Part shown: one piece after another, positions 60,960-61,883 of the stretch
Layout: every line of letters begins with the position of its first letter
Numbering within the stretch: the stretch's first letter is position 1
Sequence record: OM632669.1
DNA: 64,000 nucleotides
From: Escherichia phage BEU42
Direction: 5' to 3' (one strand)
Notes under the pieces: model-generated
Database searches by the model: none
What the model was told of the DNA's origin: nothing
The model's input: the letters and a program-made list of their open reading frames with translations, nothing else
Translations under genes and position numbers: made by a program

Positions 60960-61328
60960 ATGTTAGGTGATAACACTAATGCTCTGTTTGGGGTGTCAGC
61001 CAGACCTATTATCATTGTTAATAAACATCATGGTAAAAAGGGTGAATATATTGGGCGTGGTTCTCCTCTGGGTAATCCATTCGTTATTGGTAAAGATGGA
61101 ACCAGAGAAGAAGTAATTGCCAAATATAAAGTATGGCTACAAGAACAGATTGATAAAGGTAATCCAGTTGTACTGGATGAATTAAATCGTCTTGGTAATA
61201 AAGCCATTGATGAAAAAGGATTAGCTTTACAATGCTTCTGTTATCCAAAACCTTGTCATGGCGAGGTTATTAAAGAGAAGTTAGTAAAAGCTATGTATAA
61301 CTACTTTGTGGAAAATCCTAATGGGTAA
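60960..61328 (+). CDS. hypothetical protein with GNPF and Cys/His motifs (possibly DUF4326-like)
   Basis: Motifs GRGSPLGNPF and CFCYPKPCHGEV; AAGGAG RBS; 122 aa. Family assignment is from memory, not a search. Confidence 0.4.
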   Translation: MLGDNTNALFGVSARPIIIVNKHHGKKGEYIGRGSPLGNPFVIGKDGTREEVIAKYKVWLQEQIDKGNPVVLDELNRLGNKAIDEKGLALQCFCYPKPCHGEVIKEKLVKAMYNYFVENPNG

Positions 61329-61506
61329 ACAATGCAAATGTGGTAAAGGCTATATATCCCAATGGGATGGTAAGTGTGGTCATTGTAGAACCAAGAAAGA
61401 ACAACGTGACCATGAATATGCACTTCAAGAAATGATTGTACCTGTTGAGAATTTAGGTATGGCTCCACTTGAGGCTTACAAATATATAAGGAGATTATGC
61501 AAATGA
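61321..61506 (+). CDS. small Cys-rich zinc-ribbon-like protein (61 aa)
   Basis: In-frame ATG 61321 within track ORF 61306..61506; C-x-C-x9-C-x2-C pattern (CKCGKGYISQWDGKCGHC); overlaps the previous stop. Confidence 0.4.
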   Translation: MGKQCKCGKGYISQWDGKCGHCRTKKEQRDHEYALQEMIVPVENLGMAPLEAYKYIRRLCK

Positions 61507-61883
61507 AAGAAGTATTCGTATTTGGTTCTAACCTAGCTGGTGTACATGGTGCTGGTGCTGCAAAGACAGCATATAAGAAACATGGAGCCAGATGGGGTAA
61601 AGGGCATGGTCATTATGGTGACAGCTATGCCATTCCCACTAAAGATACCAATATCAAAACGATGACTATTGAAGACATTCGTACATTTGTAAAAGCCTTC
61701 ATTGTCTATGCTGCTAATCATCCAGAACTTAACTTTAAAGTTACTCGTGTAGGTTGTGGATTAGCTGGTATTGATGATTCTGTTATGGCCTCTATGTTTG
61801 AAAATGCCACTGGTAACTGTTCCTTTGACTTAGCATGGAAAAGTTACTTAGGGGATGATTTCAACTACTGGGGAACGTTCTAG
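61497..61883 (+). CDS. hypothetical protein with Gly-rich nucleotide-binding-like motif (128 aa)
   Basis: N-terminal VFVFGSNLAGVHGAGAAKTAYKKHGA...GHGHYGDSYAIPTKD suggests a Rossmann-like fold; AAGGAG RBS; family not identified. Confidence 0.45.
   Translation: MQMKEVFVFGSNLAGVHGAGAAKTAYKKHGARWGKGHGHYGDSYAIPTKDTNIKTMTIEDIRTFVKAFIVYAANHPELNFKVTRVGCGLAGIDDSVMASMFENATGNCSFDLAWKSYLGDDFNYWGTF

Follow-up and report, generated by a model that had tools for sequence, protein, structure and literature searches.

A predicted ADP-ribose-processing gene cassette beside the RNAPII genes of N4-type phages

Introduction

What is encoded by three small, overlapping genes that lie just upstream of the RNAPII genes of Escherichia phage BEU42? 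The genes occupy positions 60960-61883 of the window, by which we mean the whole 64,000-nucleotide stretch of sequence record OM632669.1 that was analysed, and they can be assigned by similarity to gp12, gp13 and gp14 of coliphage N4, in surrounding DNA that is likewise of N4 type (Enquatrovirus). We propose here, with moderate confidence, that these three genes form an ADP-ribose-processing cassette, most likely directed against defences of the host that work by ADP-ribosylating nucleic acids or by signalling with NAD+ or ADP-ribose derivatives. This is the simplest interpretation of the locus because DUF4326, the domain of gp12, is repeatedly fused to DarG-type macrodomains, to NADAR domains, to SLOG domains and to macrodomains of the gp14 type. 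The initial annotation of the three genes had suggested host takeover or anti-defence in general terms, and a role in anti-defence or host interaction is indeed the best-supported one.

Part of this picture was already available, since the families of gp12 and gp14 have been catalogued and the association of macro, NADAR and SLOG domains with DUF4326 has been published as a prediction. DUF4326 has been proposed to bridge NAD+-utilising systems with DNA modification (PMC7824862), and its linkage to the three domain types was predicted independently by the Aravind group (PMC7824862, PMC9503650). New to this analysis are the recognition of gp13 as a split-off zinc ribbon of DUF4326, a direct fusion of a gp14-type macrodomain to DUF4326, the fusions of DUF4326 to portal proteins, a negative test with a DarG hidden Markov model (HMM) that sets gp14 apart as a macrodomain lineage, and a structural link between gp12 and the C-terminal domain of RapZ (RapZ-C).

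Three coupled and conserved genes

The list of open reading frames (ORFs) and the reading of the sequence place three small, translationally coupled ORFs on the + strand, just 5' of the RNAPII gene, with the following features:

60948-60953, + strand: Shine-Dalgarno sequence AAGGAG for gp12, 6 nt 5' of the ATG at 60960, read in the sequence
60960-61328, + strand: gp12, DUF4326 protein of 122 aa, by Pfam match
61321-61506, + strand: gp13, predicted zinc-ribbon peptide of 61 aa (C5, C7, C19, C22) that matches phrog_13804 (E 6e-35) and ends in a tail of about 35 aa
61488-61493, + strand: Shine-Dalgarno sequence AAGGAG for gp14, spaced 3 nt from the ATG at 61497 and 9 nt from that at 61503
61503-61883, + strand: gp14, predicted mini macrodomain of the A1S_2505 family, 126 aa (128 aa from the alternative start at 61497)

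The 3' end of gp12 and the 5' end of gp13 share 8 nt (ATGGGTAA), and the second ATG of gp14, at 61503, is interlocked with the stop codon of gp13 as ATGA. This second ATG is the likelier start of gp14, giving the 126-aa rather than the 128-aa protein, because of the 9-nt spacing from AAGGAG, the ATGA overlap with the gp13 stop and the annotation of N4.

In a megablast search with positions 59900-62800, the stretch 60802-62800 was 100% identical to Escherichia phages BEU5, BEU13, BEU14, BEU44 and BEU51, and 98% identical to N4. The annotations of N4 and of the BASEL phage AlfredRasser list the three ORFs as gp12, gp13 and gp14, with gp12 named a 'DUF4326 domain-containing protein' and gp14 a 'hypothetical protein' or 'macrodomain protein'. 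In both genomes, the RNAPII subunit genes gp15 and gp16 come after gp14; in the window, the gene following gp14 is that of the RNAPII small subunit, gp15, which starts at 61958.

At the protein level, tblastn against phage genomes returned matches in 1301 records for gp12, 122 for gp13 and 458 for gp14, and the larger protein collections contain, at E<=1e-3, 5997 relatives of gp12 (in a 50% representative library) and 5729 of gp14 (in a 90% collection). The near-identical DNA of the BEU records and N4, the many protein-level homologues and the conserved motifs argue that the three ORFs are genuine genes rather than chance. The initial annotation had described them as small genes in a row, partly overlapping, just upstream of RNAPII, had named a lack of conservation as a possible refutation, and had singled out GRGSPLGNPF, C-x-C-x-P-x-P-C-H-G and a four-cysteine motif. 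The ORFs are as it described them and are conserved across phages, and these motifs are not only present but coincide with the most conserved positions of their families.

The macrodomain protein gp14

Contrary to the first impression that sequence alone places no protein of the three in a characterised family, two of them score well above the cut-off of an existing one. gp12 reaches 81.1 bits against DUF4326 of Pfam (PF14216; gathering cut-off 25, E 9.4e-23, profile positions 4-82 of 82), and gp14 reaches 152.5 bits against NCBIfam NF049995 (A1S_2505_Nterm, 'A1S_2505 family phage non-structural protein'; cut-off 45).

gp14 opens with the glycine-rich stretch FGSNLAGVHGAGAA, which had at first been taken for a Rossmann-like nucleotide-binding motif. 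This idea gives way to another fold in the AlphaFold2 (AF2) model of the protein, which is confident (predicted local distance difference test, pLDDT, 95) and shows the three-layer alpha/beta/alpha architecture of a macrodomain. A fold search with the model retrieved macrodomains, with the DarG macrodomain (PDB 5m3i and 5m3e) at the top, and no Rossmann-fold dehydrogenases, which led us to discard a Rossmann-type dinucleotide-binding protein. Since the confident model is that of a macrodomain, the glycine-rich stretch would be an ADP-ribose-binding loop; the two loops of this kind in gp14 read HGAGAA and GCGLAG.

Two residues occupy catalytic positions in this fold, N10, which is invariant in the family, and K47, which is conserved in at least 90% of it. 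A profile search of PDB sequences with gp14 gave matches to the TARG1 and BT1257 macrodomains that remained below threshold (E 0.5-0.8); in this sub-threshold alignment, the IPTK47 motif of gp14 falls on the catalytic LITK84 of TARG1, and RVGCGLAG on RIGCGLDR. The position of Asp125 of TARG1 is taken by Ala88, which is invariant in the gp14 family. An hhalign comparison of the gp14 profile with PhiKZ gp104 (AdfM) gave an E-value of 2.8e-4 and a probability of 41% over 99 columns, and set N10 and K47 on N23 and K78. The latter two are the putative active-site residues of PhiKZ AdfM and correspond to N22 and K80 in DarG of Thermus aquaticus (PMC13309987). As the hhalign alignment is weak, the catalytic assignment of N10 and K47 leans on motif and fold together. 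Judged by its model, gp14 would belong to the TARG1/Poa1p/DarG structural class, as a mini macrodomain capable of catalysis.

Several GenBank records already call homologues of gp14 a macrodomain or an ADP-ribosylglycohydrolase, and in BFVD the gp14-type domain also appears inside very large proteins of crAss-like phages that are annotated as DNA helicase and ART-PolyVal-like. Some other labels and matches were set aside. The 'ADP-ribosyltransferase' label on the RcKeef homologue falls on the macro gene itself, with no adjacent ADP-ribosyltransferase (ART) gene; the homologues from the jumbo phages Callisto and Cassandra represent neither chimalliviruses nor PhiKZ AdfM; and the Pfam match of gp14 to 5-FTHF cyclo-ligase (E 0.043, below threshold) was regarded as noise. 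Single-sequence PDB searches with gp12 and gp14 returned matches at chance level only.

The DUF4326 protein gp12 and its detached zinc ribbon gp13

The two motifs of gp12, GRGSPLGNPF at residues 32-41 and CFCYPKPCHG at residues 92-101, contain the signature of the DUF4326 family, to which NrdA.1 of T2 and T4 also belongs. Among 150 family representatives at 50% identity, R33, N39, R49, Y56, C92, C94, P96, C99 and H100 are each kept in 145-149, and gp12 has them all; for R33, N39, C92, C94, P96, C99 and H100, the count is 147-149. The 'NrdA-like' label given to DUF4326 in PHROG goes back to the gene name and does not reflect homology to NrdA.

For gp12, an AF2 model with a pLDDT of 91 was predicted from a diverse alignment of DUF4326 representatives; a homologue search with a diverse profile still gave mostly close N4-like sequences. 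The best structural match of the model was the RapZ C-terminal domain, followed by Cys-loop phosphatases. In the model, C92 closes a strand, the segment C94-x5-H100 forms the next loop and a helix starts from G101, a layout that would be that of a phosphatase Cys loop in which the usual arginine is replaced by histidine. Relatives within DUF4326 also have Pfam matches to DUF488-N3a that are weak and below threshold. Together with the matches of the gp12 model, they are in line with an earlier assignment of DUF4326 to the rhodanese-phosphatase superfamily (PMC9503650).

The cysteines of gp13 (C5, C7, C19 and C22) have the arrangement CxC...CxxC and are invariant in 13 free-standing and fused sequences. 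Similar sequences exist in two forms: as free-standing gp13 homologues of N4-like phages and as N-terminal extensions of DUF4326 proteins. In gp81 of Erwinia phage Fifi450 and in 6 of the 150 representatives, a gp13-type ribbon occupies the N-terminal 45-55 residues, ahead of DUF4326. Because the same ribbon residues (C5, C7, G10, S13, D16, C19, C22, R23 and T24) are invariant in the free-standing and the fused forms, gp13 can be read as the detached zinc-ribbon module of DUF4326, with predicted zinc binding. The order of the two modules differs, since in N4 the ribbon is a separate gene 3' of DUF4326, whereas in the fused relatives it lies 5' and in frame.

The ribbon also has a life beyond this partnership. 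Residues 1-27 of gp13 (61321-61401) are 70% identical to the start of small proteins from SP6/K1E-like podophages, such as gp12 of K1E, which would make the zinc ribbon a mobile module that extends beyond N4-like phages; no DUF4326 lies nearby in these SP6/K1E-like matches.

Domain fusions of DUF4326

Evidence that connects the three genes comes from multidomain relatives of gp12. Twenty multidomain DUF4326 representatives were scanned, of which two contain a macrodomain, three NADAR and eight a SLOG domain (YAcAr, YpsA or DprA-like), the remainder being made up of one protein with a 3'-5' exonuclease, one with DUF7831 and five with no other recognised domain. One representative (P0255) joins DUF4326 directly to a macrodomain of the gp14 type, which is 50% identical to gp14 over 101 residues (E 1e-29; HMM E 5.5e-35). 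Another representative (P0246) carries, fused to DUF4326, a macrodomain of the DarG type (DarG of PADLOC 2.6e-66; PDB 5m3i E 3.5e-42).

Similar fusions occur in IMG/VR, where a SLOG-DUF4326 fusion was found and where an N4-like contig of 73.8 kb (L022, shared with L139) encodes a 290-aa NADAR-DUF4326 fusion at positions 3443-4312, with a gp14-type macro gene 1 kb downstream. A single N4-like early region on this contig has NADAR, a gp14-type macrodomain and DUF4326, and with them both known kinds of DNA de-ADP-ribosylase domain.

In two further IMG/VR contigs (L043:1232-4249 and L052:1190-4249), DUF4326 forms the C-terminus of portal proteins of about 1000 aa (Phage_portal of Pfam). This arrangement suggests that some phages carry the enzyme inside their virions, to be delivered along with the DNA. 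The polyvalent-protein context of the gp14-type domain and the portal context of DUF4326 would both fit early effectors acting together with injected DNA.

Gene neighbourhood

The genes are also found near each other when they are not fused. Of 80 gp14-type loci, 30 contain a DUF4326 gene on the same strand and no more than 6 kb away, which lies upstream in 29 cases and downstream in one; conversely, a gp14-type macro gene lies within 4 kb in 20 of the 80 DUF4326 loci, the nine closest being N4-type contigs of about 70-74 kb. In G7C-type phages (L015-L018, at about 3986-4720), a shorter gp14-type macro gene of 116 aa comes 4 nt after the DUF4326 gene, with no zinc-ribbon gene between them.

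Proposed mechanism

Two erasers of DarT-modified thymidine and guanosine in DNA are known, the DarG-type macrodomain and NADAR. In phages, macrodomains that protect against DarTG2 have been described in PhiKZ (AdfM, PMC13309987) and T4 (Tk.4, bioRxiv 10.1101/2025.11.20.689424), and orphan copies of the two erasers, AdfM and AdfN, let phages escape DarTG2 and DarTG1, respectively (PMC13309987; PMC11825919; bioRxiv 10.1101/2025.11.20.689424). By analogy, gp14 may plausibly work like AdfM. Its two glycine-rich loops would bind the ADP-ribose moiety, and Asn10 and Lys47 would cleave the linkage at ribose-1'', taking ADP-ribose off the modified substrate, for which our best guess, following AdfM, would be phage DNA or RNA modified by DarT-like toxins. 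gp12 would act as a Cys-loop enzyme through its C94-x5-H100 loop, with R33, N39 and R49, and, together with gp13, might process the phosphate or sugar-phosphate group in this class of ADP-ribose-derived substrates or in the resulting product. The zinc ribbon of gp13 would provide gp12 with nucleic-acid or partner binding.

A bolder version of this scheme, which we put forward only tentatively, would make gp12 and gp13 a split two-component enzyme for an undescribed step in the reversal of nucleic-acid ADP-ribosylation, for instance the clearing of a phosphoribosyl or phosphate-linked ADP-ribose remnant that glycohydrolases leave behind. gp14/A1S_2505 would then be a third independent lineage of orphan-antitoxin erasers, widespread in Schitoviridae, and the cassette as a whole would constitute a two-enzyme repair pathway against DarT-like defences.

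Several observations weigh against an ADP-ribose-processing cassette of this kind. The first ones concern gp14, which had no match at E<=1 either to the Pfam family Macro (PF01661) or to the DarG HMM of PADLOC (PDLC02990). The latter detected its positive controls, PhiKZ AdfM (4.4e-39), T4 Tk.4 (1.3e-9) and the DarG-type fusion P0246 (2.6e-66), and in hhalign the gp14 profile had no significant similarity to Thermus aquaticus DarG (E 0.06) or to T4 Tk.4. As the DarG HMM is positive with both AdfM proteins and blank on gp14, membership of gp14 in the DarG/AdfM family was rejected at the sequence level, and its sequence argues instead for a separate, shorter macrodomain lineage that shares the fold and the catalytic-position residues of the DarG/TARG1 class. 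Regarding gp12, its three invariant cysteines and histidine could be ligands of a structural zinc and not part of a catalytic loop; sequence searches detected no solved structure for any DUF4326 member, and we know of no experiment on any DUF4326 protein. The genomic context adds to these objections. The neighbours of 60 DUF4326 loci outside the N4 type are mostly generic genes of DNA and nucleotide metabolism, a diffuse signal, with SLOG or NADAR in only 3 of 104 neighbours, and the synteny of gp12 and gp14 in N4-like phages is phylogenetically non-independent, for which reason the fusions are stronger evidence of gene linkage than co-location. Finally, in the library of papers that was searched, none connects N4 with DarTG.

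Alternative explanations

Among the alternatives, the one that survives best, which we still consider unlikely, keeps ADP-ribose at the centre of the scheme and changes the substrate to small molecules derived from it. According to this explanation, gp14 would be an ADP-ribose-1''-phosphate phosphatase similar to Poa1p, or would act on the Thoeris signals gcADPR or His-ADPR, and gp12 and gp13 would take a terminal phosphate off ADP-ribose or off products of its breakdown. However, the fusion of DUF4326 to DarG-type macrodomains and NADAR, which are DNA de-ADP-ribosylating enzymes, points to nucleic-acid substrates. The zinc ribbon and the association with helicase and portal proteins point the same way, and gp14 has no sequence-level similarity to Poa1p.

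Somewhat less probable is a housekeeping role in nucleotide or DNA metabolism, in which DUF4326, as the NrdA.1 family, would assist dNTP synthesis as a redox or phosphatase accessory and gp14 would clear ADP-ribose metabolites. The DUF4326 gene adjoins nrdA in T-even phages and nrdB or nrdD/nrdG in other myoviruses, and its neighbours in IMG/VR include ribonucleotide reductase (two cases), thymidylate synthase, 5-hmdU DNA kinase, PNKP and DNA polymerase; the gp14 homologue of roseophages sits in the DNA-metabolism block, and the three invariant cysteines of gp12 may recall the cysteine relay of arsenate-reductase-type enzymes. Even so, adjacency to ribonucleotide reductase may merely mirror shared blocks of early and middle genes, and N4 has no such enzyme beside gp12. 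Of the 20 scanned multidomain relatives, 13 are joined to ADP-ribose-linked domains (macro, NADAR or SLOG) and none to components of ribonucleotide reductase.

A host-takeover module that reverses or edits the ADP-ribosylation of host or phage proteins, such as those of the transcription or replication machinery, as the counterpart to a phage or host ADP-ribosyltransferase, seems improbable to us. The removal of protein-linked ADP-ribose is what macrodomains of the TARG1 class do, the genes sit among small genes beside those of RNAPII, and one protein of a crAss-like phage joins an ART-PolyVal domain with a domain of the gp14 type. Nevertheless, the position of the catalytic Asp125 of TARG1 is the invariant alanine of gp14, the N4-type genome of AlfredRasser, which has been annotated with care, lists no ADP-ribosyltransferase, and the enzymes to which DUF4326 is fused target nucleic acids.

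That the three genes are functionally unrelated neighbours held together by inherited synteny, with gp14 as a non-catalytic ADP-ribose reader, is very improbable: gp14 does occur without DUF4326 in 50 of 80 loci, DUF4326 without a gp14-type macrodomain in 60 of 80, and gp13 in a narrower set of phages (122 records), but independent fusions exist between DUF4326 and both other modules, and the asparagine and lysine at the catalytic positions of gp14 are conserved.

Probable transcription signals and a junction at 60802

The cassette is bounded on its 3' side by one further feature:

61901-61917 (N4 4546-4562), + strand: hairpin AAGCTGC-TCC-GCAGCTT followed by TTGG, between gp14 and gp15

A hairpin with the same 7-bp stem size, the same TCC loop and the same TTGG tail (AAGAAGC-TCC-GCTTCTT-TTGG) lies 5' of gp2 in N4, at position 557, and the element also resembles the hairpin with a 5-bp stem found 5' of gp1, at N4 position 90. 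A terminator scan of 58800-62300 did not call it. The virion RNA polymerase (vRNAP) uses hairpin promoters, and the early genes that it transcribes are named as only gp1, gp2, gp15 and gp16 (PMC13434306). Because of the design shared with the gp2 hairpin and the transcription of gp15 and gp16 by vRNAP, the hairpin at 61901-61917 is probably a third early vRNAP promoter (P3-type), serving gp15 and gp16, and not a terminator. gp12, gp13 and gp14 lie upstream of it, and their RNAs may be early read-through or middle transcripts. The 'early region' to which the cassette had been assigned by the initial annotation holds as a map position only.

The only site resembling an intrinsic terminator in 58800-62300 is at 60439-60456 (GGGAGCC-ATTT-GGCTCCC followed by a T-run), in the N4 right-end gene block, between an ORF ending at 60275 and another starting at 60486. 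Positions 58500-60802 match the right end of N4 (67588-69890, gp68-gp71), and from 60802 the match continues at N4 3447, in the middle of gp11, so that the 52-aa ORF at 60799-60957 represents the C-terminal half of gp11 only. At this junction, 3709 bp are absent relative to both N4 and BEU5, comprising the terminal-repeat region, gp1-gp10 and the N-terminal half of gp11. An artefact of assembly or permutation is more likely here than a real deletion, because a phage without gp1 and gp2 should not be viable.

Significance

If gp14 is an ADP-ribose eraser, most N4-like phages (Schitoviridae) would carry an anti-ADP-ribosylation enzyme that DarG-based searches miss, and the concept of the 'orphan antitoxin', introduced with AdfM and AdfN, would be widened. 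DUF4326 is a large family, with about 6000 cluster representatives in the 50% library and members in 1301 phage genome records, T4 NrdA.1 included, and its fusions to the zinc ribbon, to both types of macrodomain, to NADAR, to SLOG and to portal proteins provide it with a concrete, testable class of substrates. N4 is a classic model phage, and N4 or AlfredRasser (Bas69) in E. coli K-12 offers a tractable system for the chemistry of DUF4326.

Comparison with known systems

On the side of gp12, the closest relatives would be those of the rhodanese-phosphatase type, and a clade uniting RapZ-C, DUF488 and DUF4326 was reportedly defined by Burroughs and Aravind in 2023 (NAR Genom Bioinform). T4-type phages combine the same elements in another layout: their DUF4326 protein, NrdA.1, is encoded beside nrdA, and the anti-DarT enzymes Tk.4/AdfM and 30.3/AdfN, both demonstrated by experiment, are encoded at separate loci.

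On the side of gp14, the DarG antitoxin of DarTG2 (5m3i, 5m3e) shares the FPTK/IPTK lysine motif and the G-x-G-x-G-G-type loop. However, DarG has a C-terminal domain that binds DarT and is encoded adjacent to the toxin, and gp14 has neither. TARG1/OARD1, of the ALC1-like class that also includes Poa1p of yeast, has in Lys84 the equivalent of K47, whereas its catalytic Asp125 is replaced by the invariant Ala88. AdfM, represented by PhiKZ gp104 and T4 Tk.4, would be the closest functional parallel, although gp14 is about 30 residues shorter and belongs to another family (A1S_2505 of NCBIfam). AdfN (T4 30.3), the NADAR-type orphan antitoxin against DarTG1, embodies the same concept of an orphan ADP-ribosyl-DNA glycohydrolase carried by a phage; it is built on a NADAR domain, which the N4-type cassette does not contain, even though NADAR is a recurrent fusion partner of DUF4326.

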